The notes under the pieces: generated by a model
Seen by the model: only the letters and a program-made list of their open reading frames with translations
Databases searched by the model: none
Told to the model about the DNA's origin: nothing
Position numbers and translations under genes: made by a program
Source: an uncultured virus (IMG/VR IMGVR_UViG_3300037087_000281)
Lineage: Duplodnaviria > Heunggongvirae > Uroviricota > Caudoviricetes
Reading direction: 5' to 3' (one strand)
IMG/VR virus record: IMGVR_UViG_3300037087_000281
DNA: 20,000 nt
Shown: positions 1-19,315 of the stretch, piece by piece
Numbering within the stretch: the first letter of the stretch is position 1
How the letters are laid out: each line of letters starts with the position of its first letter

Positions 1-1242
1 CTGAATGAACGCGGCGACTCCCGTGTACGTCTTGAAGTACTTGTCGTAGAGCTTGACGAGCCGCTTGTAGGTGATCCCGGTCATGTCGGCGTTCTTCCCG
101 TCGATGGCCCTGATCTTGGCGACCACGTACGGGTAGAGGGACTCCCTGCCGAGGCCGAAGATGACGCCAAAGTGCATGTTCTTCACCATCTTGCGGAGGT
201 TCTTCTCGGCTTTGATCCTCTCCACGGGCCACCCCGTGAGGGAGTTCCCGACGAGGCAGTGGATGTCCTGCCCCGTGTTGAACTGGGAGATGAGGAGCCG
301 GTCCCCGGATATCTCCGCGAGCATCCTTACCTCGATCTGACTGTTCTGCGTGACGACGCCGCAAGCCAAAACATAGTTGTGATCCGGCTCCACCGTTATC
401 GTGAACATCGGTTGAGTTCCTGCCGGTTCGATGGCGATGATCTTGTGATTTAATCCGCGCTTTATTTTCTTTACGAGCCGATTAGAGTACCCGTAACTAA
501 GGCCGAAATGATCAGCTACTTTTGAAGCTGTCCAGTTGTCGACGCATACAAACTGATGTAGGAACTGCATGTCTTCATCAGACAGTTTGCTGTTTGGGTT
601 CCCTCGCCCGTTGTAAGAACGGCGCTTTTTAACGCCTTCTCTAAGCGCCTTGATCCTGACCGCATGATCTTGTTTCGCGTAGATGACTCTCATGTGTTCC
701 GCTCGATGATCGTACCTCAACTTGTACTCTAAATTTCCCGGAGAGTTGTTGGTAGGATCATCGTCTTTATGATGAACTTCATGCCCTTCTGGGCAAGGTC
801 CCAAATAAGCTTCGGCCACCAAATGATGCTCGTAGTCATATATGAAATGAGACCTGGAGTACCACGTCTTGTAACCTCCTCCGTTAGATCCCGGGCGACA
901 AGGCACCATCCGTTCCCCGATCCGTAACTCTTCTGTGGTTTTGACTACAACTCCGGAAGTTTTTCTCGCTTGTACTTTTTCCAGAGTGGGCCATCTGTGA
1001 TCATAGGAAGCGATGACGGACTCATCGTTGTCGAACGTTACTTTATACGCTTTTTTCGGACGGACCGTCTTAATGCGTGTTACTGCGCCCCATTTTATTC
1101 TTCCATCTCTGTAAGTAAGCACGGGGGTGCCGACGCTTAAGCTGCTTATCTTTACTGCCCCATTCAATGTTTGTATGAGGGTGTCCGGATGCAAGCACTG
1201 GTCGGCAGCGAGGAACACCCAGAGGTCATCGAGATCCTTCAC
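1..1242 (-). CDS. polA: DNA polymerase family A, C-terminal (palm/fingers) half, intein-containing; 3' end runs off the window
   Basis: Manual translation from GTG 1242 (GTGA overlap with the upstream stop; alternative GTG 1260 with GGAGG 7 nt upstream): MKDLDDLWVFLAADQ-[intein]-SQIEVRMLAEISGD (motif A), then GQDIH, RKMVKNMHFGVIFG (motif B) and YDKYFKTYTGV. The frame is open to position 1. Not in the supplied ORF track. Confidence 0.95.
   Translation of the reverse strand, partial: MKDLDDLWVFLAADQCLHPDTLIQTLNGAVKISSLSVGTPVLTYRDGRIKWGAVTRIKTVRPKKAYKVTFDNDESVIASYDHRWPTLEKVQARKTSGVVVKTTEELRIGERMVPCRPGSNGGGYKTWYSRSHFIYDYEHHLVAEAYLGPCPEGHEVHHKDDDPTNNSPGNLEYKLRYDHRAEHMRVIYAKQDHAVRIKALREGVKKRRSYNGRGNPNSKLSDEDMQFLHQFVCVDNWTASKVADHFGLSYGYSNRLVKKIKRGLNHKIIAIEPAGTQPMFTITVEPDHNYVLACGVVTQNSQIEVRMLAEISGDRLLISQFNTGQDIHCLVGNSLTGWPVERIKAEKNLRKMVKNMHFGVIFGLGRESLYPYVVAKIRAIDGKNADMTGITYKRLVKLYDKYFKTYTGVAAFIQ
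343..1197 (-). mobile_element. Intein (285 aa) with HNH homing endonuclease, inserted in PolA motif A
   Basis: Starts CLHPDTLIQTLNG (block A); has SYDHRW (block B), an HNH core HHLVAEAYLG...EVHHKDDDPTNNSPGNLEY, an HTH-like segment, and ends MFTITVEPDHNYVLACGVVTQN/S. Removing it restores AADQSQIEVR. Confidence 0.93.
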
Positions 1243-1394
1243 TCGCGCGTCACCGTCCACGACGCGCCCTCCAGGAGCGCCGTTACGTCCTCTTGAATTA
1301 GCTCTATGACCTGGGCGTCGGACATGGATGCGAACTGCTCCTCCGTGGCCCAGAAGTCCTCTAACTCCTTGGTGACCGTGACGGAGACGCGCAT
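1239..1394 (-). CDS. Small acidic hypothetical protein (51 aa, MRVSVTVTKELEDFW...)
   Basis: ATG 1394 overlaps the upstream stop (TGATG) with a GGAGGG RBS; its stop overlaps the polA-C start. Confidence 0.6.
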   Translation of the reverse strand: MRVSVTVTKELEDFWATEEQFASMSDAQVIELIQEDVTALLEGASWTVTRE

Positions 1395-1780
1395 CAGTCC
1401 CCCTCCCGGCGGTACGAGAACGGCTCCCGCATTCTGGAACCGCTGTGCCCGAGGTAGGTGCTGGTGTCGCTGCGCTCGTGGGGCCGGGTGGCACTCTCCG
1501 CCGCCGTGTTCCAGTGGAACAGCGGGTTCTCCGGAGCGCGGGTCTCCAACCAGGCGTAGTTGAAGAGGTTGCGGAGGTTCTCGGAGTTGCCGGTCCGCTC
1601 GTACTTCTCCAGCTCCTTCCGCATCCGCGTCATGTACTTCATCCTCCTGCTCGGACCGCCGTGCGGGGCCTCGTAGCGCGGGTACCCGAAGGCGAGGCGA
1701 TTGGCGGCCTGCTGGACGAACTCGATGAAGTGCGGCCAGTCGTGACGGAACTTGCCGCTGCACCAGACGGTGAACTCCAT
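1394..1780 (-). CDS. Hypothetical phage protein (128 aa), possibly all-alpha NTP-pyrophosphatase-like
   Basis: ATG 1780 with TGATG overlap and GGAGG RBS. NRLAFGYPRY...YERTGNSENLRNLFNYAWLE resembles helical phage proteins with an ExLxDxxNY motif; the function is an inference only. Confidence 0.7.
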   Translation of the reverse strand: MEFTVWCSGKFRHDWPHFIEFVQQAANRLAFGYPRYEAPHGGPSRRMKYMTRMRKELEKYERTGNSENLRNLFNYAWLETRAPENPLFHWNTAAESATRPHERSDTSTYLGHSGSRMREPFSYRREGD

Positions 1781-1944
1781 CAGTAACCTCCATCCGTGCA
1801 GTAGTCGCAGCACCCGCAGCTGCCGTCTTGACAACTCCCGCCACTACGATACTCGGCGTTCTTTTGCGCTTCTTCCGCGAGGTACCGACGAATCCGTTCT
1901 TCCCGTTCGTCGATCTTCTTGATCTCAGCAGCGATGGATATCAT
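1780..1944 (-). CDS. Small protein (54 aa) with Cys-rich C-terminus
   Basis: Manual translation MISIAAEIKKIDEREERIRRYLAEEAQKNAEYRSGGSCQDGSCGCCDYCTDGGY; ATGA and TGATG overlaps at its two ends fill the gap exactly. Confidence 0.6.
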   Translation of the reverse strand: MISIAAEIKKIDEREERIRRYLAEEAQKNAEYRSGGSCQDGSCGCCDYCTDGGY

Positions 1945-2357
1945 CGGTCATCTCCGTCGCCGTGAAGAGTTCCTCGTAAAACTCTCCCAGCGTATTTCTC
2001 CAGCGCGATGTCGGCTACCTCTTGAAGGGTCATCCCGAGCTCGAAAACTGTCGCTGACACGTACCACATCACGTCGCCCAGTTCTTTGCAAATGGCCAAG
2101 CGCCGTTCCTCGTTCAGGTGTCCGTCGTAGTCTCGGAGCAATTTCTTTACTTTCTCCGCCACCTCACCGCTCTCTCCGCATAGCCCCAACGCAGTATAAG
2201 GGAGATTACTTCCTTTGTCAGGATATATGGCAGTGTCCATGCAACGCTTTTGAAACTCATTCAAAGTAAGTTGCTGGCAGACCGAGCAAAGTTTCCCAGC
2301 CGTTCCGACTTCTCGACTCTGGCACTGCGGGCAATAGTCTAAATTCGGATCTTTCAT
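1941..2357 (-). CDS. mazG: MazG-like nucleoside triphosphate pyrophosphohydrolase with N-terminal CxxC..CxxC finger
   Basis: LGLCGESGEVAEKVKK...KELGDVMWYV (ExxE...ExxD MazG signature); start at ATG 2357 via ATGA overlap. Confidence 0.88.
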   Translation of the reverse strand: MKDPNLDYCPQCQSREVGTAGKLCSVCQQLTLNEFQKRCMDTAIYPDKGSNLPYTALGLCGESGEVAEKVKKLLRDYDGHLNEERRLAICKELGDVMWYVSATVFELGMTLQEVADIALEKYAGRVLRGTLHGDGDDR

Positions 2358-2563
2358 TTGCTTATCCTCATTTCGATTGTTATCAAGTGCATCTCGGCTA
2401 TGGTATCCTTGTACCCCAAGTAAGACATCTGAGTATAAAGTGGCTCTTTGCCAGATCTCGTATGCCCCTTGACGTAAGTACAAGAAATTCCATTCACTAA
2501 CTGATACCGGGCAAGCAGCATGAATCCAGCTAGCTTCAAAAACTCCCGTTCCCAATTCTTCAC
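2354..2563 (-). CDS. Hypothetical protein (69 aa)
   Basis: GTGA overlap with the thyX stop and ATGA overlap with the mazG start. Confidence 0.55.
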   Translation of the reverse strand: MKNWEREFLKLAGFMLLARYQLVNGISCTYVKGHTRSGKEPLYTQMSYLGYKDTIAEMHLITIEMRISK

Positions 2564-3225
2564 CGCATCTTACTCATAGCCGCCGTCTGTTTCGTTAGTG
2601 GCTCAATGTCATCGAACAGTATCGGAATCTTTACCTTCAGTTCAGCCAGTAGTGGAATGGTCACCTGTCGCATCTGCGGATGGGCTTCTTTGGTCGTCCG
2701 CATGATCATAATGTGCCGAAGATTGCGGAGGTTAGTCGTCGTGATTATCCTGCTGGCAAGGGCGTTGGGAAAGACAGAGCGGGCAATCTGAGGAGCGCAT
2801 CCCTCGTTGATTAACTTCTGGTACCACTTCTCGGCGTCCTCGATCCCACATATCCACGAGGCCTCTCTCGCTACCTCGTCTGGCTCCCCGTTGAAAGGCG
2901 TGATAAAGCTAGGGGGCATCTTCTTCTGGTAGTTGACAAAACGCGTACTTTCCTGTGTGAAAGCGCACAAGCGGTGCCGCACCCACTCGTGGGTAATGCC
3001 GCGGTCCACCACCATGTCGATGGTAACCGAGGCGTGCTCCACGATGCTCCAGTCCCCGTGGCCCAGAACCACGGTTTCGATGAATCGTCTCCAGGAGTCC
3101 TCGGTCTGCGCTTCTTCAGAGCGGTGGGAGATCCGCCCGCACCACTCGATCTTCTTCAGCAGCTTGACGCCGGCCTCCAGGTCGGGGACGTCCATCAGCC
3201 GCGCGTACGGCGTCACTATGTTCAT
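2560..3225 (-). CDS. thyX: Flavin-dependent thymidylate synthase ThyX family protein
   Basis: RHRx7S signature (RHRLCAFTQES-TR), SIVEH, QIARSVFP, NLRNLRH..MR; ATG 3225 with GGAGGAG RBS and ATGA overlap with the polA-N stop. Confidence 0.93.
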   Translation of the reverse strand: MNIVTPYARLMDVPDLEAGVKLLKKIEWCGRISHRSEEAQTEDSWRRFIETVVLGHGDWSIVEHASVTIDMVVDRGITHEWVRHRLCAFTQESTRFVNYQKKMPPSFITPFNGEPDEVAREASWICGIEDAEKWYQKLINEGCAPQIARSVFPNALASRIITTTNLRNLRHIMIMRTTKEAHPQMRQVTIPLLAELKVKIPILFDDIEPLTKQTAAMSKMR

Positions 3226-5045
3226 TTCTCCTCCAAAGCCAATCTCCACCGGCGGTCCGACACCATCAAGTTCTGCATCATCGGGTTCCCGTGCGTATTC
3301 TGGAAATTGAGGATGCCCTCGGCCTCGGCCCGGTCCCCCTTGCCGCTTCGCAGCCTCCCCGTGACCGCGCCAACTAACCACCATATAGTTCTAAGTTCGC
3401 CATCGTGGAGTTCTGCGCTCCTCGCGTACCCGGCGAGGTAAGTCGACGCGATCTTGCCGATAGTCCTACGCTTCATGACTAATTCCAACACCGGGTCTCC
3501 GGTCTCAGCGAGGAGAAGTTCCAGGATCTCCTTCCCGGTCCCGCGCGTGACAGTCCCCCTCCTGTCCGTCGGCGTCGGCAGCTTCAAGACGTCGTAGAGC
3601 AGGTGGGCCACCTGCTGCGAGGAGTCGCACTCGAAGCCGGGATCGTCGGCTAACTGCCTGAGATGCCTATCTAACTCTGCGATCATCTTCGGGACTGCCT
3701 CCGACGCTTTCTTCCAGTTTTCCCAATCAAGGATCGGCCCGCGCCGCTCCATCTTGTCGAGAGTCATCCCGGCCCTTACGTACACTTTGGCGAGAGCTTG
3801 ATTGACTTGCGGGCTAAACCTCTCTTCCAGTCGCTTCGTCACGTCACAGTCTCCGCAGTTGCGCAAGACGAGGAGATCGAGCGGCACGTTGGCATAGTTG
3901 ACCGATCCGAAAGTGCCGTCGCCGCCCGCATGTTCGATCACGGTGTCTTTGTAGTCTCCGAACTCGGGGAAGAACAGGTATGTGAGATTCTCTAATCCGC
4001 AGCTACGAAGAAAAGAATGCCGTAGGAACGTCCCGTACATCGTGTCATAATCGTACCCTCGCAATTTGGCTCCGAGGTATATCGCGCTCGCGGCCGAGTC
4101 ATATGACCCGTTCTGGAGAGTCTTCGGAATCGATACGTCTTCTAACAAGAGTTTCAACCGCCGACGTAAACTCTCACGCGTCTTCAAATCGGAACTCGCT
4201 TCAGGATGATCGATGACTACGGACCAAGCGCGGCCCGTCCAAGTCTTCCAGTTCCCTATGACGCGAAACTTTCCGACTCCGAATCCCGCCAGTAGCATCA
4301 CTTTCTTCCCATTGACTGTTCCATCTTCTACGTCATAACTGACTCGCCGTCCGGCCTTTGCTTCGGCCTTGATGATCTTCTCCATCGCGTCGAACGTCTC
4401 GACGGACTCTACCGCTTCGTAGCGCCTCGACTTTATGTAACCCCATCGACCGGGATTCTTTAAGATCGTTGCGACGGCCCGCAGCTTCTCCTTCCAGACG
4501 TTGAACTCCCATCCAGCCGCTTCTCCTCTTCGCAGAAGGTATGACGGGTGCTGGAGATAAACACAATACGCATTCCACGGTTCGTGCCAAAATACCGGAT
4601 GATCTTTCTTTAATGCTTTCCCGAGAAGTTGTTCTCCCGCTATATCCCCGAGTATCACGTGAACGACGGCCTCTCCGCGGTTAAGGTCGAGAGCTTCCGA
4701 GTTGTAAACGGCACAGCACTGGAGTTCCCGCTTCGTCGGGTCGCGCTCTTGGCCATCATCGGCAGGCCAGCACCTCACTCCCGCGTTCTGCACGTCGAAG
4801 TGGCCCCTCGTTAATCCGACCTCCGACAGCGCCTCCCACAAGAGCTTACCGGAGCTCCCCGACAGCTCCAAGCCCTTCGCGTTGTCGATCTTCCCCGGCC
4901 ACGCTCCCCAAAGCATGGCCCGTCTGCCCTTGACGCGCGATAGTCCCTTGATCTTCTTGACTCCGGCTATACCGTCGAGGGGGCAATGCGAACACCCCAA
5001 GACTTCGCCTCGGCGGGTCACCGGCTGGTTAAACAGATTTTTCAC
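3222..5045 (-). CDS. polA: DNA polymerase family A, N-terminal half: family-4 UDG-like domain + 3'-5' exonuclease + thumb
   Basis: UDG-like: CSHC, GAWPG..D..G..SG.SGKLL, RCWP, QCC, HPSYLLR. Exonuclease: YDVE, NGSYD, YDTM, NCGD. Thumb: MERRG, SSQQVAHLLYDVLKLP, STYL, then TGRLRSG...NFQN, followed by a stop before motif A. Confidence 0.93.
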   Translation of the reverse strand: MKNLFNQPVTRRGEVLGCSHCPLDGIAGVKKIKGLSRVKGRRAMLWGAWPGKIDNAKGLELSGSSGKLLWEALSEVGLTRGHFDVQNAGVRCWPADDGQERDPTKRELQCCAVYNSEALDLNRGEAVVHVILGDIAGEQLLGKALKKDHPVFWHEPWNAYCVYLQHPSYLLRRGEAAGWEFNVWKEKLRAVATILKNPGRWGYIKSRRYEAVESVETFDAMEKIIKAEAKAGRRVSYDVEDGTVNGKKVMLLAGFGVGKFRVIGNWKTWTGRAWSVVIDHPEASSDLKTRESLRRRLKLLLEDVSIPKTLQNGSYDSAASAIYLGAKLRGYDYDTMYGTFLRHSFLRSCGLENLTYLFFPEFGDYKDTVIEHAGGDGTFGSVNYANVPLDLLVLRNCGDCDVTKRLEERFSPQVNQALAKVYVRAGMTLDKMERRGPILDWENWKKASEAVPKMIAELDRHLRQLADDPGFECDSSQQVAHLLYDVLKLPTPTDRRGTVTRGTGKEILELLLAETGDPVLELVMKRRTIGKIASTYLAGYARSAELHDGELRTIWWLVGAVTGRLRSGKGDRAEAEGILNFQNTHGNPMMQNLMVSDRRWRLALEEK

Positions 5046-5773
5046 AGCAAAGACCTGCGAGGTGATTTCTTTTTCACAGAAACGCTTTTGTTGAAAAGGA
5101 GACGACGTGTCTGGTTAAGTCTCTTCACGGCGATGGCGCAGTATTTCTCCTCGATTTCGATGCCGATGGCGCGGCGGCCAAGTTGCTTCGCGGCTACCAG
5201 CGTTGTGCCGCTGCCCATAAACAAGTCGAGAACGACCTCGTCTTGCAAGGTTCCGAGTCGGATGAGCTTATTGATGACGCGCAGCGGCTTCACCGTCGGA
5301 TGCATGAAATCATTTTGCTCCGACGGGCTGACGATGAACCTGCTCTTGTCTCGAAAGGAGCCGTGCAGCTTGTTGGCCGAGAAGTGGTGCACAATGTACT
5401 CGGTGTCCGGAAGGTAGTTCCCGTTGGACAGCGGCGTGGGGTTCGGCTTGTTCCACGTGATTAGCATCCATCTCCTTTCGGGGCTTTGAGCGGCGCGCAA
5501 GATCTCAATTAGTTGATTTTTCCCGCAGAAGCAGAACCAGTTGTCGAATGACCGTAGCAACCCGACGTCGAACCCCCCGTCGATGTGCCCGTGGATGTCG
5601 GCAAGGTACTTGCGCCGTGCGCCGATGCCGCCTCCCTTCGCTCCGATTTCGTAGGGAGGATCAGTAAGCACTAAATCCACCTTCGGAAGATGAGGCAGTA
5701 TGTCGTTGCAATCAGCGCAATAGATCGTGATACCTTTCCCGTCATCGTAGTAAGGTTTGAGCAGTTTACTCAT
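5042..5773 (-). CDS. DNA amino-methyltransferase (N6-adenine or N4-cytosine), beta-class motif order
   Basis: LVLTDPPY catalytic motif N-terminal; HPTVKP; LDLFMGSGTT SAM-binding motif C-terminal; IGIEIEEKY. Confidence 0.93.
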   Translation of the reverse strand: MSKLLKPYYDDGKGITIYCADCNDILPHLPKVDLVLTDPPYEIGAKGGGIGARRKYLADIHGHIDGGFDVGLLRSFDNWFCFCGKNQLIEILRAAQSPERRWMLITWNKPNPTPLSNGNYLPDTEYIVHHFSANKLHGSFRDKSRFIVSPSEQNDFMHPTVKPLRVINKLIRLGTLQDEVVLDLFMGSGTTLVAAKQLGRRAIGIEIEEKYCAIAVKRLNQTRRLLFNKSVSVKKKSPRRSLL

Positions 5774-5886
5774 TTCAATCGTCGCTTAAATCACGTTTCT
5801 TGCCCTCTACCGTGGCCTAGGATCGCTCGCCGGGGTCGAACCCATGTTGAGCTACCTGTTCCGGGAAGGATCGCTTAGAATAAACT

Positions 5887-6600
5887 CTACGCACTCGGTC
5901 TCCCTTTCAATTGCGCCGGTTTTCTTTCGGTCTTCGCTTTGGCTCGCCTTTGATGGTTTACCGGATGCAAATATGGAGTCCCAACTCCCTCCCCGAAGAC
6001 CTCAGCCAGTTCTGGCGCGAATGTGAAGTAGCAGTAGTTCGGGTTGGTCAGCGTTCCCAGAAGCATCCGCTGCGCCTCTGCCTTGGCGATCCCGCGCGTT
6101 CGCAGATAAAACAACGCTTCTTCGTCAACTCGCGCTTCGTCGCTGAGGTAGTGAATGCGAAGCCCGTCTTCCTCGCAAAATTCCAGGAACTTCGTGATAT
6201 CGACTTTTTGGTACTCGTGCGGCCAAATGTGGACCGCTCCGTCCGGTGTATTGATGACTGCCTGTTGCAGATGAACGTACTCCCGCTCCTTCCGCCGTTT
6301 GATCCCAAGGTCATGCAACAGAACCCGCGAATTGGAAACATGCGGCATCGCGTACCAAAGCGACAAATGCGGGACGGTGACCACTTTTGTGCTGGCTGCA
6401 TCGACCTGTCGCCCGACCGTTACCGACACCAGCAACATGATCCAACCGCCGCCCTCAGGGATCGCTTTGCCGTATTCTTCTGGAAAGGCGTCTTCTGGGC
6501 ATTCGCGCCGATGGACCATATCGGTGATTGTCGAGTCCTTCTGGAGTTTGGCGTCCTCCGATTCGGTCCAAGCGGGATTCGGAATCATTCGAGGTATCAT
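5887..6600 (-). CDS. Hypothetical protein with a SufB/SufD C-terminal helical motif
   Basis: VDEEALFYLRTRGIAKAEAQRMLLG matches the SufB/SufD C-terminal consensus (D-e-e-x-lFYLxSRGi...A); the remainder is unrecognised. Confidence 0.7.
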   Translation of the reverse strand: MIPRMIPNPAWTESEDAKLQKDSTITDMVHRRECPEDAFPEEYGKAIPEGGGWIMLLVSVTVGRQVDAASTKVVTVPHLSLWYAMPHVSNSRVLLHDLGIKRRKEREYVHLQQAVINTPDGAVHIWPHEYQKVDITKFLEFCEEDGLRIHYLSDEARVDEEALFYLRTRGIAKAEAQRMLLGTLTNPNYCYFTFAPELAEVFGEGVGTPYLHPVNHQRRAKAKTERKPAQLKGRPSA

Positions 6601-7690: not shown

Positions 7691-8422
7691 TCAAAATAAC
7701 CCTTTGCGTCCGCGTTTTGATTTAACCCATACGGAGGCAGATTGTTGTGATTCTATTCTCTCGGCGAGCACGATTCCGCGAACGGCTTTAGAAGGCGGTT
7801 GATAACTTCCGTTCCACCGGTTGTCTAGCCCGATGCTGCGCGCGACATTTGTGCTGTCGGTGGAAGCGAATGGAAACTTGGTGAAGATTTCTGGATCCAG
7901 CATTCTCAATCCATGCAGTTTGGTAAAAGGCCTGCCGTTTTTAGTAACCACGGCCATCGCCTCATTCATGCGTGCCCACCATCTTATGGTTCCAATAGTT
8001 GAATACTGTCCGCTAGACCCAAAAGCCACCTTTTCATACTTCTCCGTTAACGAACTCAAGCGTGCGAGTGACTCGTGAATGTGCCAAACGGGAACTCCGG
8101 TTTTATTTCCCGCGAGTTTCCACTTTTTCAAAAAATCATCGTTTTCTTTTTCACTCCCGTCAATGACATCGGGTATCAAGGCCCAGTCGAACCCGGGGTG
8201 ACACTCCCACTCCATAACCCACTTATGATAACCATCAAAATCAACTTGCTTACCGAGTTTCCACTCTGAAAACGCCCCGTTATCCAAAATAAAAGACTGA
8301 CAAATTTCGGCGACCAACTCGATTTGTTCCGGATTGGCAAAAGACACGCATGCATGCCTTCCCATCAAAATCTTCGCGGCGGCAGAATCCGGAGACATCG
8401 GCGTTCCATGATAATGGATCAT
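7691..8422 (-). CDS. TGT/DpdA-like transglycosylase (putative 7-deazaguanine DNA base-exchange enzyme)
   Basis: MIHYHGTP start (ATG 8422, TAATG overlap with the queD stop); motifs ILDNGAFS, IPDVI, VPVWH, LHGL, STDST typical of TGT-fold enzymes; adjacent to queD. Confidence 0.75.
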   Translation of the reverse strand: MIHYHGTPMSPDSAAAKILMGRHACVSFANPEQIELVAEICQSFILDNGAFSEWKLGKQVDFDGYHKWVMEWECHPGFDWALIPDVIDGSEKENDDFLKKWKLAGNKTGVPVWHIHESLARLSSLTEKYEKVAFGSSGQYSTIGTIRWWARMNEAMAVVTKNGRPFTKLHGLRMLDPEIFTKFPFASTDSTNVARSIGLDNRWNGSYQPPSKAVRGIVLAERIESQQSASVWVKSKRGRKGLF

Positions 8423-8775
8423 TAGATGTCCAAAGAAACCCCGCACCTCTCGGTCTCTCTTATTTCAATTCGACAGATCCCGGGAAGGGAACCTTTCAAA
8501 ATCCCGGCCATCCACATCGCTAGATGCTCACACGTAGGATTCTCCAACAGCGGGATTTCGTTCAAGCATCGATGATCCACCAATACTTTTACAGACTCCC
8601 ACATTATCTTCACGTCTGCGTAATCGACTACCCATCCAGAAGTGTCTCCGACCTTTCCTGAAACTTCTAGTCGGATTTTGTAAGTATGCCCATGAAGAGC
8701 GTGACACTTGTGATTCTTTGGAACGTTAGGAAGCCAATGCGCAGAGTCGAAGCTGTCTTCTATAAAAATTTTCAT
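8422..8775 (-). CDS. queD: 6-carboxy-5,6,7,8-tetrahydropterin synthase QueD
   Basis: FDSAHWL..HKCHALHGHTY (CxxxHGH), LVDHRCLNEI..ENPTCE, IRETE; 117 aa. Confidence 0.95.
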   Translation of the reverse strand: MKIFIEDSFDSAHWLPNVPKNHKCHALHGHTYKIRLEVSGKVGDTSGWVVDYADVKIMWESVKVLVDHRCLNEIPLLENPTCEHLAMWMAGILKGSLPGICRIEIRETERCGVSLDI

Positions 8776-9775: not shown

Positions 9776-10708
9776 CTAAGTCTCAAAAAGCTGGTGCCGT
9801 AAGGACAAGATGTGGGTCAAGTCCCTGTCGGCGCAGAACTGCCCGAACGCAGCTGCGCTCGCCGCTCGGTCCTTCCATCGTTGCGCACCGTCCAATCGCC
9901 AGCCGTTCACGTCCACCTTGGCGACGCACTCCCTCACCCGCGGGTCGGACCACTTGCGGGGGAGGCGGGCAGCGAACCAAGAGAGGCGGATCGCCGGCCA
10001 CGCCTCGCCGTACTTCTTCTGGATCCACGGCGGCTGGTCCTCCAGCTCGGTTATCAAGCTGATGCCGCCGTGGATCAGCTTCTCGGCGGTCTTGGGACCC
10101 ATGCCGCGCATCGGCTTGATGTTGTCGCTCTTGTCCCCGCCGAGAGCGAGGTACTCCGCCCAGCGATTGATCGGGAAGCCGTGCTCCTTCTCGACGCTCG
10201 CCGCGCTCAAGGTTTGGAACACGCTCTTCCCTTTCTGAGGCACGAGGATCTTCACGCGGTCTCCATCGAGAAGCTGGTAGAAGTCCTTATCCGTGGAGTA
10301 GATCAGCTTGTTGCCGGGACCGCTGACCAAGATCCCGATCACGTCATCGGCCTCCAGTCCCATCACCGACGCGCTCTCGTAGCCGAGAAGACGAATCGCT
10401 CGGTTGAGGTCGGCGAACTGGCCGAGGCACCGGGCGCGCTCCTCGGCGTTGGAAGTTCTGTTGGCTTTGTAGCCGGGAAGAAGGTCGTCGCGCCAGTTCT
10501 TGGGTTTCTTAGCTCCCGCGACGGGAACGCCGTGGTCCCAGCAAAAAATGATTCGTTTAGAAACAGTTCTTCGAAGATCGGCTATTATTCGCAGCACGCC
10601 GTGCAGGACGCTGGTCGGCTTCCCCGAGGAGCTCTTGAGTTGCGGGGCCGCGTAGTGCGTGCGGAAGCCGACGTTGCTGACGTCCACGAGGATAAGTGGT
10701 TCCCTCAT
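9776..10708 (-). CDS. 5'-3' exonuclease / flap endonuclease (PolA N-terminal domain type)
   Basis: LILVDVSN..FR..YA, YKANR, EADDVIG, STDKDFYQL, ALGGDKSDNI..GMGPKTA; ATG 10708 via ATGA overlap. Confidence 0.95.
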   Translation of the reverse strand: MREPLILVDVSNVGFRTHYAAPQLKSSSGKPTSVLHGVLRIIADLRRTVSKRIIFCWDHGVPVAGAKKPKNWRDDLLPGYKANRTSNAEERARCLGQFADLNRAIRLLGYESASVMGLEADDVIGILVSGPGNKLIYSTDKDFYQLLDGDRVKILVPQKGKSVFQTLSAASVEKEHGFPINRWAEYLALGGDKSDNIKPMRGMGPKTAEKLIHGGISLITELEDQPPWIQKKYGEAWPAIRLSWFAARLPRKWSDPRVRECVAKVDVNGWRLDGAQRWKDRAASAAAFGQFCADRDLTHILSLRHQLFET

Positions 10709-10947
10709 AAAGGCCACTCTACACCCAACAGTTTCGCTCCCGTCGCGGTGAGTGGTTTACCGCCGCGCACATGCTCTGTGCAAGAACTTGTTTGCTCTTC
10801 GACATAAATCTCATGGTTTATCCGCCGCACGACTAAGTCTACCGCTTCTGAGTATCGATCTCGAAGATAAGCATGATGCTCCATCTTATTTTCACTACCA
10901 ATCCGACGCGGGTCGACTTTTACTTTTTCCCCAAAATGCCTGCTCAT
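10705..10947 (-). CDS. Hypothetical protein (80 aa, MSRHFGEK...)
   Basis: ATG 2 nt after the HTH stop; its stop overlaps the exonuclease start. Confidence 0.55.
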   Translation of the reverse strand: MSRHFGEKVKVDPRRIGSENKMEHHAYLRDRYSEAVDLVVRRINHEIYVEEQTSSCTEHVRGGKPLTATGAKLLGVEWPL

Positions 10948-13756: not shown

Positions 13757-15114
13757 AGACTCAGCAAAGCGACCGCTGGTGGGACGACGCGGATTTTCAA
13801 GACGGCCTTGTCGCGCTGTTGACGCGTGATTACCGCACGCTCAAGGACTGCGCCGCGCTCCTGGACACGGACGACTTCCAGCCGCAGAAGGGGATGCGTG
13901 ATGGGCGTTCTCGCTGGATCGTGGCCGAGCGCGCGCTAGAGCACTACAAGCGGCATCGTGAGCCGGTCGGATCCCTCCTTCGCGCCGACGTTCTCCAGCA
14001 CGTCCACGGGATCGGGTTCGGGGCCGCGCAGAAGGCGGAGGTCCAGGCGTACCTCGCCAAACTAGATGCGCTTCGCACTGAGGCCCCGGCCGCCATCGTC
14101 GAGAAGGTTGTCCAATTTAAAAGCCTTCGACTCAAGGCGGCAGCGATAGAAGAGCTCGCCGATTTACATGCGTCCGGCGCGCTGACCGACGAGAAATGGT
14201 CAGAAATTTCCAAGAAAGCCATGGCTGCGACGTGCCGGGAGACCGCCACTACGGACTACATGACGACGTTCGATTCCCGGGCCGAGCGCCGCGCCAGGAA
14301 CGCGACGCACCCGCGCGCCCCGTGGACGTTCATCGACCCGCTTGACTCCATGGTCAGCACCGTGGGTCGCAAGCAGCTCGGGATGTTCCTCGCGCCTTAC
14401 AAGCGCGGGAAGAGTGCCGCGCTCCTCTGGATGGCGGCAGCCTACGCCCTCCAGAAGCTGCGCGTGCTCTACGTCACGCTAGAGGATCCGGAAGAGCTCA
14501 TGGAGGACAGGCTTGACTCGATCATCACGCATGTCCCGCTGAAGCAGCTCACCGACTACCCGAAGATGACGCGGCGTAGGTTCGAGCGCCGCCGCGGGAC
14601 CACGGGGATGCGCCATGGCGGGATCCAGATATATGACGGGACGGAGGGCGGGACGACGGTCGCCGTCCTGGAGTCGCTCCTAGAGACGATGCGTGACGAG
14701 GGGGAGCCGGCGGACGCACTCATCGTGGACTACGACGACGAGGTCGTGGCTTCTCAGAGGTACAAGGAGAAGCGGTTCGAGACGGACGACGTGTACCGCG
14801 GCCTTCGCGCCCTCAACGCCAAATACAACACGATTGGGTGGACGGCTGCTCAAACTCAAAGAGATACGCGGCAGTTGAAGATTCTCAGCGGCGATAAAGT
14901 GGCCGAGGACATCGGCAAGATGCGTAAGGTCACCTGCGGGCTCTCGCTCGGGAAAGGCGAGTGGACGGAGGACAGTATATTCTTGTGGGTGGCGGCACAC
15001 AAGTCCGACAAGATGGACGTCGGGTGTGAGATTATTCCTGATATGCGCCGACTTTTAATTTTCGACCGCGAAGCTACTAGAAAAGCTATGAAAGAACACG
15101 GTGGCCAATCATGA
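13753..15114 (+). CDS. dnaB: Replicative SF4 (DnaB/T4 gp41-like) helicase
   Basis: Walker A APYKRGKS, VLYVTLE, LIVDYDD (Walker B), WTAAQTQR, VAEDIGK. Confidence 0.92.
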   Translation: MKTQQSDRWWDDADFQDGLVALLTRDYRTLKDCAALLDTDDFQPQKGMRDGRSRWIVAERALEHYKRHREPVGSLLRADVLQHVHGIGFGAAQKAEVQAYLAKLDALRTEAPAAIVEKVVQFKSLRLKAAAIEELADLHASGALTDEKWSEISKKAMAATCRETATTDYMTTFDSRAERRARNATHPRAPWTFIDPLDSMVSTVGRKQLGMFLAPYKRGKSAALLWMAAAYALQKLRVLYVTLEDPEELMEDRLDSIITHVPLKQLTDYPKMTRRRFERRRGTTGMRHGGIQIYDGTEGGTTVAVLESLLETMRDEGEPADALIVDYDDEVVASQRYKEKRFETDDVYRGLRALNAKYNTIGWTAAQTQRDTRQLKILSGDKVAEDIGKMRKVTCGLSLGKGEWTEDSIFLWVAAHKSDKMDVGCEIIPDMRRLLIFDREATRKAMKEHGGQS

Positions 15115-15581
15115 ATTTGGGATCGAGGCACTCCAAAGAAACACGCGCGAAAATGTCCGCTGCTCAAAGAGTTTTTTGGAGTGCCGAAGAAAACCGTAAA
15201 AAGAAATCGGCATCTCAAAAGGCTTTATGGACTCCTGAAAAGCGCCGCGCTCAATCCGACCTTTTCAAAACCGGTGCCGTTGTAAACGGGATGACCGGGA
15301 GAAAGCATTCTAAAAAGTCTATAAAGTTGATGTCTGACGCAGCCAAGAAAAGAAAAATATCTCCTGTTGGGAAGAAACTCTCCTTAGCTGAAGGCGCCGT
15401 CGGGATCTTAGTAGTTCAGTTGCGGTTTGGCGTTCATCACGTGATCGTCAACGGGTTGCCGGCCGACGAGTGTTACGAGACCATGGAGGCGGCGAAGCAG
15501 GCGGGCGTCGACCTCGCGCGGCGGATCATGCAGCACGCGGCGTACCAACTGGATCTCTTGAAGATGCGGGAGGAACCGTGA
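15111..15581 (+). CDS. NUMOD3 DNA-binding repeat protein without a nuclease domain
   Basis: GSRHSKETRAKMS and GMTGRKHSKKSIKLMS NUMOD3 motifs; no GIY-YIG or HNH motif seen. Confidence 0.75.
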   Translation: MNLGSRHSKETRAKMSAAQRVFWSAEENRKKKSASQKALWTPEKRRAQSDLFKTGAVVNGMTGRKHSKKSIKLMSDAAKKRKISPVGKKLSLAEGAVGILVVQLRFGVHHVIVNGLPADECYETMEAAKQAGVDLARRIMQHAAYQLDLLKMREEP

Positions 15582-18500
15582 AGCGCGCCTCTAAGCCATC
15601 GGTGGCTTCCGGGGATGCTGCGGCAAGGGGCGGGGCCGGAGAACGCGTCCTGGGAGCCCGGAGCGGCCTAGGAATGCGTCCTGCGGGGCTCCTGGAGATG
15701 GAGGTTCCAGTCTCGGTGACGATCTATGGCTCCGGCAGGCAGCCGCCGCAGACTACCGAGGTCTGCCCGACGGTGCAGGCTATCGGGATCGGCGGCGGGT
15801 TCAGGTCGCAGTACGAGGTCAACGTAGAATCAACCATGGGAGATCAAGCGATGAGCATCGGCAAGACACCGCGGGGCGGGGCGGTCACGAGGAAGACGCT
15901 GTTCGGGGAGGTGGTTATCCAGCCAGACTTCGCGGCGGTGGACGGGCGGATCGCGACCAACTGCCAATGCCCCGCTTGCGGGTACGAATGGAACGCGCCG
16001 CTCGCCAAGAAAGTCGCGCGCCCCTTGTTTGGGAAACCCGCGCCGGTGGTCACCGCCGGTTTCAGCTGCCCGAAGTGCAAGCACGCTTGGGAGGGGAAGC
16101 CGCGGGCCGCTCAGAGGTTCGGAGCCAAGGACGGGAAGTCTATAATCGCTAAGACTTCAGTCGCGGTGGAAAAACCTCTTTATCGAGTGCCGTTAATGAG
16201 CGAGATCAAAAAGTTCTCGCGGAACGGGTTCAAGGTCGTCAGCACGTTCTCGGGTTGCGGCGGTTCTTGTACCGGGTACAAGATGGCAGGGTTCGACGTC
16301 GTGTGGGCCAACGAGTTTGTTCCGGCGGCGCAGGACTCTTACCGCGCGAACTTCCCGGACACGATCTTGGATTGTCGAGACATACGGAAAGTTACTGCAA
16401 TGCAGATCCTCAAGGCGACGGGGTTGAAGAAGGGAGAATTGGACTTGTTCGATGGATCGCCGCCTTGCTTCCCCGCCGGTGCTTTGGTGCTGGCCAAGCG
16501 TGGTTTGATTCCGATAGAGGAGATCGTTGTCGGCGATGAAGTTCTTACGCACAAAAACCGCTGGCGTTCCGTGCTACGCGTTGGGAGTAAGGAAGCCGAG
16601 ACGATCGTCTTGAAAGGTCATGGTCATTGGGGGTTGGAGACTACCAAGGAGCACCCGTTCTGGTCTCGAAGGTTGAATCAGCGTTACGTACGCTGCGGGG
16701 GCGGGAAGAGCCGCTACGTAAAGACGTGGAACGATCCGGAATGGATCGAAGCTCAGGACATGAAGAAACTGTTTTGGGCGACGCCGAACATGGTGGAAGA
16801 TACTCCTTTATCGATTCCGGCCGTGGCGGGGAGAAAAGTGAACTTTAACCAAAGGTTCTGGTGGATGGTAGGACGTTGGCTCGGCGACGGTTGGATTATA
16901 AATCCGCGCCGAAACAATTTCGGTATCTGCTGTTCGCAAGAGGAAACTTCATTTTTGGAGTCTATGTTGAAGTCGGTGGCTCCGATTGCTGGATCGGGCA
17001 ATGCTGGAGACGGAGAGTTGCGTTGGACGGTTATAAAAGTTAGGACCGGAACGCAGTTTAGCTGCGCTCATAAGGGTCTTGTGGAGTGGTTGCAAGACAA
17101 TTTTGGTTGCGGAGCTGCTGACAAGACGATTCCGGCATGGGCGTTGACTATGAAAGATAGTTGGCGGCGTAGTCTTTTGGAGGGTTACTTTTCAGCAGAC
17201 GGTTTTAAGATGAAAGAAGAGGGTCATTCAGCTATAAATACGGTAAGCAAGAAGTTGGCCGTTGGTACGCGATTGCTAGTTGAATCCCTAGGGATGACGG
17301 CTACGCTTGTTTGGCAAGACATGCCTAAGAAGACGATGATTGAAGGGAGGGAAGTAAATCAGAAACCGTTTTTTAGAGTCGCTTGGCGTTATGGGGAAAC
17401 GAGATGTGTTCAGCGGGATACTGAATATACTTGGGGCCGCGTTCGCCGTGTGCTTGATGGCAAGGAATCTGTCATTGTTTATAACATCGAAGTGGAAGAA
17501 GATCACAGTTTTACTGTTGATGGAATGGTTGTCAAAAACTGTCAAAGTTTTTCGACCGCCGGTCGGCGCGAGAAAGGCTGGGGCAAAGAGAAGAAGTACG
17601 AGCACGGGGCCAAGCAGATGAACGAGGACTTGTTCTTCGAGTACGTTCGCCTGCTCAAAGGGCTCCAGCCGAAGACGTTCGTGGCGGAGAACGTGAGCGG
17701 CCTCGTCAAGGGCACGGCAAAGGGGTACTTCAAGCTGATCCTCGCGGCGCTGGAGGGATGCGGGTACGAGGTCGCGGTCAAGGTCCTCGACGCGCAGTGG
17801 CTCGGCGTCCCGCAGATGCGGCAGCGCGCGATCTTCGTCGGCGTCAGGAACGACTTGGCCGCGCTGGGGTTCCACCCGGCGCACCCCGAGCCGCTGCCCT
17901 ACCGGTACACGGTGCGGGAGGCGCTTCCGTGGGTCGTCAAGCCAGTTCACGGCGGTTTCTCCGTCACTAGCTGCGAGGATACTCCATCGCCGACCGTGAC
18001 TTCTACGCAGTGTAGGATGACGACTGAGGTTCCAGTCATAAAGACGCGGGTGGTCCACGACACGAGTGGTAAGGGCGGCGCGGCGGGCGTCAACAGCTAC
18101 AGCGCGGGGGACATCACGGACAAGCCGTGTCCCGCAGTCACCGTGGGCGTCAACTCCTTGAACAGCTCTCACTTCCAGGTCCTGGAAGTGAGAGGGGGCG
18201 CGTCGCGTTGGAGGTCGGTTGTCTATGAGCATGAGATTCGGGCCGGGGAGCTGCGGGTCAGCGTGATGAGCACCGGGTCGATCCGGCACCAGGAGGCTGG
18301 GAGGATGCGCAGGTTGGACGCGGGCGAGGAGCCGAGACCGGCCATCATGACTTCGCCCCCGGCGTACTCGCTGGAGGTGGAGCCGGAGGCCGCGCTGCGC
18401 GGGGCCGTCGGGGAGGAGTGGGACAGGCTGGCCGACGGGGAGCAGAGCGGCAAGTACTTCAGCTTGGTCAAGCCGCCGCTGGACGAGCCGAGTCCCGCGG

Positions 18501-18748
18501 TCACCGCCGTCGGCGGAACGAGCTGCGCGTCCGTCACGCATCCGGTTGAGAGGCGTAAGTTCACGATCGCGGAGCTCCGTCGCGTGTGTGGGATGCCGGA
18601 TGACCTGATATTGACTGGATCATACTCACAAATGTGGGCAAGACTCGGAAACGCTGTTCCAGCAGTGATGGCGGCTGCTATAGCGAAGACGGTGAGAGAC
18701 AAGATATTGATTCCAGCGCGAGACTTGGAAAAGAAGAGGAAAAAGTAA
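15578..18748 (+). CDS. dcm: DNA (cytosine-5)-methyltransferase with intein, N-terminal zinc ribbons and a long variable region
   Basis: FSGCGG (I), GSPP-[intein]-CQSFS (IV), ENVSG (VI), VPQMRQR (VIII), RKFTIAELRR (IX), LGNAVP (X). Start at GTG 15578 (GGAGG RBS, GTGA overlap); ATG 15851 is an alternative. Confidence 0.93.
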   Translation: MKRASKPSVASGDAAARGGAGERVLGARSGLGMRPAGLLEMEVPVSVTIYGSGRQPPQTTEVCPTVQAIGIGGGFRSQYEVNVESTMGDQAMSIGKTPRGGAVTRKTLFGEVVIQPDFAAVDGRIATNCQCPACGYEWNAPLAKKVARPLFGKPAPVVTAGFSCPKCKHAWEGKPRAAQRFGAKDGKSIIAKTSVAVEKPLYRVPLMSEIKKFSRNGFKVVSTFSGCGGSCTGYKMAGFDVVWANEFVPAAQDSYRANFPDTILDCRDIRKVTAMQILKATGLKKGELDLFDGSPPCFPAGALVLAKRGLIPIEEIVVGDEVLTHKNRWRSVLRVGSKEAETIVLKGHGHWGLETTKEHPFWSRRLNQRYVRCGGGKSRYVKTWNDPEWIEAQDMKKLFWATPNMVEDTPLSIPAVAGRKVNFNQRFWWMVGRWLGDGWIINPRRNNFGICCSQEETSFLESMLKSVAPIAGSGNAGDGELRWTVIKVRTGTQFSCAHKGLVEWLQDNFGCGAADKTIPAWALTMKDSWRRSLLEGYFSADGFKMKEEGHSAINTVSKKLAVGTRLLVESLGMTATLVWQDMPKKTMIEGREVNQKPFFRVAWRYGETRCVQRDTEYTWGRVRRVLDGKESVIVYNIEVEEDHSFTVDGMVVKNCQSFSTAGRREKGWGKEKKYEHGAKQMNEDLFFEYVRLLKGLQPKTFVAENVSGLVKGTAKGYFKLILAALEGCGYEVAVKVLDAQWLGVPQMRQRAIFVGVRNDLAALGFHPAHPEPLPYRYTVREALPWVVKPVHGGFSVTSCEDTPSPTVTSTQCRMTTEVPVIKTRVVHDTSGKGGAAGVNSYSAGDITDKPCPAVTVGVNSLNSSHFQVLEVRGGASRWRSVVYEHEIRAGELRVSVMSTGSIRHQEAGRMRRLDAGEEPRPAIMTSPPAYSLEVEPEAALRGAVGEEWDRLADGEQSGKYFSLVKPPLDEPSPAVTAVGGTSCASVTHPVERRKFTIAELRRVCGMPDDLILTGSYSQMWARLGNAVPAVMAAAIAKTVRDKILIPARDLEKKRKK
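16466..17539 (+). mobile_element. Intein (358 aa) with LAGLIDADG endonuclease in C5-MTase motif IV
   Basis: CFPAGALV start, TKEHPF block B, VGRWLGDG and LLEGYFSADG endonuclease motifs, VYNIEVEEDHSFTVDGMVVKN/C end; visibly AT-richer than the flanks. Confidence 0.95.
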
Positions 18749-19315
18749 ATGCCTCGATGGCCGATTACAACTTTGGAAGAGAGATTTTGGAAAAGAGTAA
18801 AGAAGACTAGAACTTGCTGGGTGTGGACAGGTAAAACGAGTTCTCAAGGTTATGGAATAATCCACATCGGCAACGGGAAGTTTCAAGTGGCCCATCGGAC
18901 TTCTTGGGAAATACACACGGGGGAAAAGGTTCCAAAAGATCTTATGGTTTTGCATAAGTGCGATAATCCGCCTTGCGTCAAGTTCAAGCATCTTTTCACG
19001 GGAAATCAGTTTGACAATATGCGAGACATGATTGCGAAAGGAAGAGCGCTTTTTCAAAAAGATCCAGAAAAAGCAAGAGCTATAGCGCGTGCCGGAATGA
19101 ACTATGCCGGTAGAAAACATTATTTTTTAGAACATCATATTGGAGAAGAGTCTTCCAAAGCAAAGCTTAATAACCGCATGGTAAGACAAATCAGAAAACT
19201 GCGCTCTAATGGAGCAAGTTCCAAAGAGATTGCATATAAGTTCAAGATTGGGAAATCAACGGTCAATCGCGTAGTTAATAAAGATGCTGTTGGTGGATGG
19301 AGGCACGTTGTATGA
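18749..19315 (+). CDS. Free-standing HNH (homing) endonuclease with C-terminal HTH
   Basis: RFWKRV..CWVWTG..GYG..AHR...VLHKCDNPPCV..HLFTG...NMRDM; AKLN...EIAYKFKIGKSTV; AT-rich. Confidence 0.92.
   Translation: MPRWPITTLEERFWKRVKKTRTCWVWTGKTSSQGYGIIHIGNGKFQVAHRTSWEIHTGEKVPKDLMVLHKCDNPPCVKFKHLFTGNQFDNMRDMIAKGRALFQKDPEKARAIARAGMNYAGRKHYFLEHHIGEESSKAKLNNRMVRQIRKLRSNGASSKEIAYKFKIGKSTVNRVVNKDAVGGWRHVV

Follow-up and report, generated by a model that had tools for sequence, protein, structure and literature searches.

The 20,000-nucleotide (nt) stretch of DNA analyzed here, hereafter called the window, comes from an uncultured virus of the Caudoviricetes (IMG/VR record IMGVR_UViG_3300037087_000281) and carries a family A DNA polymerase (PolA) that is encoded in two separate genes, polA-N and polA-C. 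Every gene from position 1 to position 12120 lies on the minus strand, and the two polymerase genes belong to a chain of nine genes that runs from 5773 to beyond position 1, in which consecutive genes overlap stop to start. From the methylase gene to polA-C, the eight junctions read GTGA, ATGA, GTGA, ATGA, ATGA, TGATG, TGATG and GTGA. The genes of the chain, from first to last, are as follows.

5773 to 5042, minus strand: N6/N4 DNA methyltransferase, 243 amino acids (aa), PF01555 E 7e-31; first gene of the chain, GTGA overlap with polA-N
5045 to 3222, minus strand: polA-N, 607 aa, GTG start, matches to PF03167 and PF00476
3225 to 2560, minus strand: thyX, flavin-dependent thymidylate synthase, 221 aa, PF02511 E 9.4e-39, phrog_85; its ATG overlaps the polA-N stop (ATGA)
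2563 to 2354, minus strand: orf69, 69 aa, GTGA overlap with thyX
2357 to 1941, minus strand: mazG, MazG-like nucleoside triphosphate pyrophosphohydrolase, 138 aa, PF03819 E 1.3e-9, phrog_229 E 1e-27, ATGA overlap
1944 to 1780, minus strand: orf54, 54 aa, ATGA overlap
1780 to 1394, minus strand: orf128, 128 aa, TGATG overlap
1394 to 1239, minus strand: orf51, small acidic protein of 51 aa, TGATG overlap with orf128 and GTGA overlap with polA-C
1242 to 1, minus strand, continuing past the window: polA-C precursor, GTG start, 583 aa, of which the first 414 lie inside the window; the full-length protein is P0084

The polymerase domain is not on a single polypeptide: polA-N stops at 3222 and a new start follows at 1242, with 1,980 nt and six genes between them. 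The initial annotation of this DNA had listed six open reading frames (ORFs) between the halves and stop/start overlaps at every junction, which is what we found, and the junction between the methylase gene and polA-N is of the same kind.

The two products match complementary parts of family A polymerases. The Pfam model PF00476 (DNA_pol_A, 381 positions; cut-off, 34.3 bits) aligned with polA-N over positions 4 to 123 (48 bits) and with the window part of polA-C over positions 160 to 256 (61 bits), and the NCBIfam DNA polymerase I (Pol I) model PRK05755 (889 positions) was covered from 273 to 632 by polA-N and from 668 to 882 by the full C-half, P0084. The polA-C protein begins VKDLDDLWVFLAAD; P0084 is 100% identical and has the same GTG start, and the GTG start of polA-N is backed by N-terminal conservation among its relatives. 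The polA-N protein combines a uracil-DNA glycosylase (UDG)-like domain of family 4 and a 3'-5' exonuclease region with the thumb and the first palm strand; its C terminus reads TGRLRSGKGDRAEAEGILNFQNTHGNPMMQNLMVSDRRWRLALEEK followed by the stop codon, the closing residues being NWRLALEEK.

The position of the break could be placed on the Klenow fragment (1dpi_A), with which the family profile aligned at E 5e-71. The last conserved segment of polA-N, sdknWRkAl, corresponds to Klenow RIRQAFI, and the vFLaaD segment of the C-half corresponds to YVIVSAD705; the break aligns to Klenow residues about 694 to 698, the short connection that joins two palm strands. Its variable length suggests that this connection would be a surface loop. 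The break is 13 residues ahead of the motif A Asp, and the C-half holds all three of motifs A, B and C; the polA-C segments so named are those that we take to be these motifs, and the match to Klenow D705 was computed. Counted from the conserved Trp to the Asp of motif A, the window has 7 + 13 = 20 residues and the fused, single-chain relatives have 17 to 30 (measurable in 17 of 20). The spacing of the two halves fits that of the fused linker; no residue is missing or present twice, and intein halves would find no space at the break. The Pfam and NCBIfam matches and the Trp-Asp spacing all agree with the initial annotation of a family A polymerase in two genes with little or nothing lost or duplicated; however, that annotation placed the break at motif A, whereas the whole of motif A belongs to the C-half.

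The C-half is itself interrupted. The annotated features of polA-C are as follows.

1198 to 1242, minus strand: N-extein, VKDLDDLWVFLAADQ, comprising the motif A strand and the catalytic Asp14, aligned to Klenow YVIVSAD705
1197 to 343, minus strand: intein of 285 aa (polA-C aa 16 to 300), from CLHPDTLIQT to HNYVLACGVVTQN (VVTQN end), followed by Ser
724 to 834, minus strand: HNH endonuclease domain of the intein (aa 137 to 173), HNH_3 48.4 bits, cut-off 24.8
1 to 342, minus strand, running on past the window: start of the C-extein, SQIEVRMLAE..., with the remainder of motif A and with motif B (RKMVKNMHFGVIFG)

A contiguous HNH intein, as predicted from its borders and domain content, sits inside motif A of polA-C. 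In P0084 its first residue is C16, its last is N300 and S301 stands at the +1 position; the insert separates Q15 from S301, and 26 aligned stand-alone C-halves lack it with exact borders. The same insertion site is filled in a related locus, L034, by a 46%-identical intein (MFDY/CLHPET...VVTYN/SQNELR, slashes marking the borders). Without the intein, polA-C is a 298-aa protein with motifs A, B and C (motif C reads MEIHDALVF in P0084), and the catalytic columns D13, R64, K68, H202 and D203 are invariant in the 26 aligned intein-free C-halves. The C-half would have to splice itself before a catalytic center exists. The initial annotation had read the C-half as VKDLDDLWVFLAAD(Q)SQIEVR, as if Q15 were followed directly by S301, and had overlooked the 285 residues that separate them.

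The C-half appears to be a hot spot for inteins more generally: inserts occur in the related proteins P0099, P0108, P0113 and P0110 and at loci L018, L021, L036, L037 and L043. A second insertion site in relatives holds about 320 aa ahead of N/TPIQG, with C...N/T borders and weak LAGLIDADG_3 matches, and P0110 is the sole carrier of an insert inside motif B (NMVFGV/C...SN/CYGLG).

Since the window is derived from a metagenome, the split could in principle be an assembly or frame error, with a continuous gene interrupted by a chimeric cassette. Contigs from four of four peat sequencing runs, belonging to four studies, run across both junctions and across both borders of the intein with zero differences, indels or joints, so that the independent sequence data across the junctions that the initial annotation had proposed to consult agree with it. 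In addition, the nearest record, G001 (IMG/VR, 40 kb, 42% complete), shares 100% of the window's sampled words and has an identical layout. We assign almost no probability to an artifact.

The N-terminal part of polA-N carries one further recognizable domain.

4488 to 4922, minus strand: UDG-like domain (aa 42 to 186), PF03167 47.3 bits, cut-off 24.3

The score of polA-N against TIGR00758 was 57.6 bits, below the cut-off of 125 for that model. Within the UDG-like region, four cysteines (C18, C21, C92 and C111) are invariant in 45 sequences and the HPS motif is kept; the Glu position of what we take to be the canonical family-4 UDG motif A seems to be substituted in polA-N, which reads AWPG (4488 to 4996, aa 18 to 186). 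A tblastn search with polA-N matched 38 records, all of them distant PolAs at no more than 29% identity and none of them an N4-like or SPO1-like phage; megablast of positions 1 to 5800 against phage records gave no match; and a polA-N profile search of genome contigs returned no relative and hence no clue to a prophage or host. In the collections searched, the polA-N clade is known from metagenomes only, and most of its members are split.

A separate gene of the window encodes the 5'-3' exonuclease.

9776 to 10717, minus strand: 5'-3' exonuclease (FEN), PF02739 E 2e-26, phrog_107

This gene is context and no piece of the split. In phages, the FEN usually has a gene of its own. The initial annotation had counted it as one of three pieces of Pol I; however, the fused relatives also open with a UDG-like domain and have no 5'-3' exonuclease domain.

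To place the break in its family, we searched with polA-N and obtained 83 proteins: the window's own, two distant bacterial Pol I proteins and 80 relatives (33 to 88% identity over the aligned part). After the removal of five fragments (P0060, P0074, P0076, P0077 and P0079), 75 relatives were classed. Fifty-five are split, with N-halves of 544 to 660 aa that are 43 to 78% identical to polA-N and that all end in W(R)xA(L) plus 0 to 24 residues; the other 20 are fused, as single chains of 856 to 954 aa. The tail after the conserved Trp is 4 to 9 residues long in 53 of the 56 split forms, the window included. A search with the C-extein gave 35 proteins, among them P0084, of which 32 start 12 to 82 residues ahead of the motif A Asp; the leader measures 12 to 20 residues in 24 of these 32 C-halves.

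A census at the DNA level covered 54 loci from IMG/VR and the JGI metagenomes, including the window, after four records that repeated contigs had been removed; since several loci are near-copies (L010/L011/L012, L016/L017, L022/L023 and L024/L025), the distinct lineages are fewer than the loci. In 18 loci the gene is split with the C-half 0 to 3.2 kb downstream, in 20 it is fused, and in one it is split and no more than 601 nt of sequence remain; 15 were left unclassed, as the tail of the N-half lay outside the locus or the frame ran off the end. On the aligned sequences, the break before motif A is a trait of the family. Divergence of the N-half and of the C-half is correlated over 26 loci (r = 0.75; none of 2,000 permutations as high), which is weak evidence for paired halves, as shared descent alone can give such a correlation.

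The distribution of the two states was examined on a quick IQ-TREE reconstruction (LG+G4) of the N-half region with 76 rows. Fused forms make up the three most distant relatives and the branch that follows; among the other 72 rows split forms predominate, fused ones being nested inside at four places and a single split form lying within a fused clade. At least six changes of state are required, compared with a mean of 17.8 for shuffled states (none of 500 shuffles was as low), and forcing all split rows together cost 1,101 log-likelihood units (approximately unbiased [AU] test, p = 6e-5); the states had been set by length before the tree was built, and the AU test was run after the tree had been seen. 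Some of these changes may be due to sequencing errors in individual metagenome proteins. Taken at face value, the states interconvert easily on the tree, and both the split and the fused forms are therefore apparently viable.

The sequence between the halves varies. Across the 17 related split loci, the gap ranges from an overlap to 3.2 kb and its gene content differs. The contents of the filled gaps are as follows.

L001: DNA methylase, PF01555 E 3e-29
L004: 64-aa ORF
L005: DUF559 homing-endonuclease-like protein, phrog_559/9084
L007: three genes, including an SNF2-methylase fusion, 3.2 kb in total
L022/L023 and L035: orf51-like small protein
L029: TET-associated glucosyltransferase
L037: dATP/dGTP pyrophosphohydrolase
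L039: DUF6884 protein
L051: DpdA-like protein

The gap is empty at six loci: L003 (ATGA), L036 (TAATG), L048 (8-nt overlap), L034 (29-nt overlap), L031 and L041. At the last two (L031, 3254 to 3259; L041, 1364 to 1372) the halves are in one frame and are parted by a single TAA, with a GTG at once or one codon on; this arrangement is the minimal form of the split. An alternative genetic code was considered as the cause of the splits and was rejected: both TGA and TAA occur as stop codons at the break, and the two halves mostly differ in frame.

Individual genes also change position. The thyX gene is in the gap in the window and downstream of polA-C in L001, and the L001 gap methylase is of the same Pfam family (PF01555) as the methylase upstream of polA-N in the window. 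Because the gap genes differ between loci or are absent, the cassette is not part of the split, which is instead a stable site into which different genes have moved. The initial annotation had expected that related phages would share the breakpoint with other genes between the halves, and the relatives agree with that expectation; the nucleotide-metabolism cassette that it had described in the gap is no defining part of the split, given the six loci with abutting or overlapping halves.

Among the genes in the gap of the window, orf69, orf54, orf128 and orf51 gave no match to a Pfam, PHROG or NCBIfam family. No endonuclease family match was obtained in the six gap ORFs, these four being without any family match, so that a free-standing homing endonuclease was not detected at the break. 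Homologues of orf51 lie directly upstream of polA-C in L022 (7856 to 8071)/L023 and in L035 (2956 to 3219); tblastn matches to orf51 in related loci fall inside the gap only, in three lineages including the window, and the alignment of three sequences has 13 invariant columns. A scan of IMG/VR with an orf51 profile gave no match, and the best Atlas lead scored 0.83. For orf69, tblastn of the related loci gave no match. The nearest Atlas clusters of orf128 are viral hypothetical proteins (0.91 to 0.92), with MazG/PRA-PH-like clusters as weak leads (0.82 to 0.83); orf128 may encode a second pyrophosphohydrolase of the cassette. A search for repeats around the cassette revealed no flanking direct or inverted repeats beyond short chance-level matches, no tRNA gene was found in a tRNA gene search, and a promoter and terminator scan of positions 1 to 6200 gave counts not above those of shuffled sequence (4 versus 3.0 and 7 versus 5.6, respectively).

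These arrangements bear on the possibility that the two halves are joined after all, whether through removal of a large ORF-bearing intron by RNA splicing, through ribosomal bypass or through protein trans-splicing. This polymerase gene often carries inteins, and an intron was raised by the authors of the MEP401 phage genome for a similar split (PMC10580990). However, an Rfam scan of positions 1 to 5800 gave no match to an intron family at E values up to 1, and the gap is filled by six overlapping coding genes on the same strand, with no noncoding space for an intron. Trans-splicing is opposed by the layout of the halves, as polA-N stops where its fused relatives continue and the C-half starts 13 residues before the Asp, and by the Pfam analysis of polA-N, in which only the UDG and DNA_pol_A domains, and no Hint match, were found. 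The loci L031 and L041, in which one in-frame TAA alone parts the halves, are likewise hard to reconcile with any such joining, which we regard as highly improbable. The initial annotation was right that there is no intron space and that no split-intein halves are present at the break; its description of the polymerase as nonspliced is correct in that no intron or split intein joins the halves, but it fails for the C-half, whose own intein has to excise.

We postulate that this UDG-fused family A polymerase is the replicative enzyme of an uncultured peat phage and that it is made as two proteins; we consider this reading of the sequences likely. Because most of the related phages share the same cut, the two-protein enzyme is probably a working one, and the two-chain polymerase would be enzymatically active. 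In the mechanism that we propose, the genes from the methylase to polA-C are probably carried on one polycistronic mRNA with coupled translation, a single transcript and coupling being what the unbroken series of stop/start overlaps suggests. The C-subunit would be made as a 583-aa precursor, from which the HNH intein after the motif A Asp-Gln would leave to give a 298-aa chain of palm and fingers. The 607-aa N-subunit would contribute the UDG-like and 3'-5' exonuclease domains together with the thumb and the first palm strand. The two chains would then associate noncovalently, with the last strand of the N-subunit (...WRLAL) pairing beside the motif A strand of the C-subunit, as in the single-chain relatives. 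The palm would in this way be assembled in trans, and coupled translation may serve to balance the two subunits.

One could also imagine that the two products act apart, the N-half as a UDG-like or proofreading exonuclease factor in its own right and the C-half as a minimal polymerase, alone or with another partner such as the orf51 protein. Exonuclease and polymerase are separate proteins in LUZ24-like and S-SBP1-like phages (see the reports cited below), and orf51-like genes recur just upstream of polA-C in three lineages. However, the cut in the window passes through the polymerase domain and not between domains, so that the thumb and the TGRLRSG...NFQN segment are parted from motifs A to C. 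Moreover, both halves are present wherever the sequence suffices (18 of 19 split loci, the exception being the locus with 601 nt remaining), and split and fused forms alternate among close relatives, which argues against separate roles. We therefore regard independent action as unlikely.

Several observations weigh against the two-protein polymerase that we favor. The Hint-fold scores of the intein are all under the curated cut-offs (Intein_splicing, 25.6 against 35.8 bits; Hint_2, 21.7 against 28.4; TIGR01445, 22.3 against 24.5), and its competence to splice is assumed. Its penultimate residue is Gln (VVTQN) and not the usual His, as it is Tyr in L034 (VVTYN); not all active inteins have a penultimate His. 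In motif A, the Asp is followed by Gln, which is never found there in the 26 intein-free relatives (Gly in 14, Tyr in 8, Phe in 3 and Glu in 1; the intein-bearing L034 has Tyr); Gln15 may be an adaptation to the intein junction. Some of the split calls in metagenome proteins possibly reflect errors of assembly or sequencing, an example being P0028 with its position among fused forms. A sequencing-run search listed no RNA run that carries the locus. Finally, G001 is only 42% complete, and a second polymerase could be encoded elsewhere in the genome.

The last point, together with the unusual motif A Gln and the missing penultimate His, would suit a different account, in which the split gene is a decaying relic and replication depends on another polymerase, encoded in the unsampled remainder of the genome, or on that of the host. 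Such decay is contradicted by the state of the halves, both of which are full-length open frames with invariant catalytic residues, and by the retention of the same break in 55 of 75 relatives at 43 to 78% identity. No second PolA, PolB or DnaE was found in G001 or in a relative that is 80% complete (G003, 83 kb), and the only DNA polymerase signal in these two records consists of the two PF00476 matches. In the smaller records G002, G004 and G005, only the two PolA halves and no PolB were found, DnaE not having been searched there; in G006 there was no PolB, and a single DnaE candidate gave no match. A relic is, in our judgment, very unlikely, and the two-protein replicative polymerase remains the preferred interpretation.

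Taken together, the findings may be read more broadly, in a way that we put forward tentatively and that is doubtful as a whole. The loop before motif A would be a point at which phage family A polymerases are split recurrently and reversibly; the two-chain enzyme, with its palm sheet completed in trans, would be ancestral and commonest in the clade and would have been re-fused several times. The slot at the break would be a privileged landing pad for DNA-modification and nucleotide-pool genes (methylases, a glucosyltransferase, DpdA-like, MazG-like and ThyX proteins) that are expressed in step with the polymerase, and the orf51-type protein might be a dedicated assembly partner.

Textbooks present family A polymerases as single-chain enzymes, and biotechnology relies on them heavily; a whole phage clade appears to use two chains. 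What sets the clade apart is a split inside the palm of a UDG-PolA that is found clade-wide, toggles with the fused state and serves as an insertion slot, to which the window adds an intein in motif A. The break would mark a natural split-tolerant site, of use in the engineering of split polymerases and in understanding how the palm folds, and the family offers a natural series of fused forms, abutting halves and halves 0.2 to 3.2 kb apart, with or without inteins at three sites. For annotation, it follows that metagenome fragments of about 600 aa labeled "UDG family 4" and of about 300 aa labeled "DNA polymerase-1" would be the two halves of one enzyme and not truncations.

Other mobile and modification genes are present in the window.

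15470 to 18748, plus strand: C-5 cytosine DNA methylase, 1,092 aa, interrupted by a second intein (Hint_2 32 bits, above the cut-off, from aa 332; LAGLIDADG_3 at aa 565 to 614; methylase profile resuming at aa 691)
15111 to 15581 and 18749 to 19315, both plus strand: two free-standing homing-endonuclease-type genes that flank the intein-bearing methylase (NUMOD3; HNH_3 and HTH_7)
7691 to 8775, minus strand: homologue of DpdA-like queuine tRNA-ribosyltransferase, phrog_887 E 8e-70, adjoining a QueD-like gene (phrog_2389)

Mobile endonucleases are dense in this replication module. The DpdA-like and QueD-like neighbors suggest 7-deazaguanine modification of the phage DNA.

Split polymerases of family A have been described in other phages. 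In the T7-like cyanophages of the S-SBP1/S-TIP37 type, PolA is split into exonuclease and polymerase proteins (Czernecki 2023, PMC10201439; PMC12695635), and LUZ24-like phages carry a "DNA polymerase part I/II" (PMC3890496), with eight other genes between the two parts in the LUZ24 annotation (NC_010325). As in the window, a family A polymerase is encoded there in two genes and is assumed to reassemble, in LUZ24 with genes between; however, the S-SBP1- and LUZ24-type cuts lie where the exonuclease domain meets the polymerase domain, whereas that of the window falls between the thumb with the first palm strand and motif A. Fusions of UDG and PolA are known from N4-like cluster 17 and from phages of the SPO1/SP-10/SP-15 type (Czernecki 2023, PMC10201439). 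Like the window family, they have an N-terminal family-4 UDG-like domain ahead of the 3'-5' exonuclease and the PolA polymerase, a layout that the fused relatives of 856 to 954 aa show in a single chain; unlike these known fusions, the window family is mostly split, and no such phage was among the 38 tblastn records.

Fractured replication genes of phage type with split inteins, often with a gene between the ORFs, have also been reported (Dassa 2009, PMC2677866). In those genes each part carries an intein half and the halves are ligated, whereas the intein of the window is contiguous and lies 15 residues downstream of the break.

The closest match in the position of the cut comes from the phages MEP401 and MEP402 of OM43 (Methylophilales), whose DNA polymerase is split into gp13 and gp15 (PMC10580990); an intron was suspected by the authors, the choice between an intron and a split was left open, and the break point was not analyzed. 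In the MEP401 record (OP830906; L059, 6111 to 8221), gp13 ends in TGRLSSSSPNLQNFDGEIKTLFLSRYGE (also given as NLQNFDGEIKTLFLSRYGE) before its stop codon, and gp15 starts MILNADAKALEWV, which was matched to motif A by eye. In hhalign, the MEP401 C-half aligned with the C-half alignment of the family from residue 47 only, and in the profile alignment the N-half ends of MEP401 and of the window family lie within about 7 residues of each other. MEP401 resembles the window in having its PolA broken within the polymerase domain at the same structural position, with an unrelated ORF between the halves. It differs in that its PolA belongs to an unrelated lineage without a UDG domain (22% similarity at the profile level), in that there is one small ORF rather than six, and in that there is no intein. 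As MEP401 and the window family are only remotely related, the site before motif A seems to be generally permissive. Our literature search found no paper that treats a PolA break before motif A as a two-subunit enzyme; one candidate precedent, PMC6027278, was rejected, as it concerns a split tail spike gene.

For function, the comparison is with other replication enzymes of phages. The split PolB of Aeromonas phage 25, 43A/43B, is reported to copurify and to be active, and further split enzymes include gene 43 of Aeromonas phage 44RR, nrdA-a/mobE/nrdA-b of Aeh1, whose reassembled NrdA was reported to be active, and 39/mobA/60 of T4 (review PMC2988022). The 43A/43B, NrdA and T4 39/60 systems differ from the window in that they belong to other enzyme families and in that what lies at their cut is a homing endonuclease or a spacer that is not translated, whereas the gap of the window holds nucleotide-metabolism genes and an endonuclease-like gene occurs in only 1 of 10 gap-bearing relatives (L005). 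What they have in common with it is that an essential replication enzyme is cut in a functional region and made as two polypeptides that would have to reassemble, with or without inserted genes. By analogy, the 43A/43B polymerase of Aeromonas phage 25, together with the NrdA of Aeh1 and gp39/gp60 of T4, would be the nearest functional precedent for the two-chain PolA proposed here.

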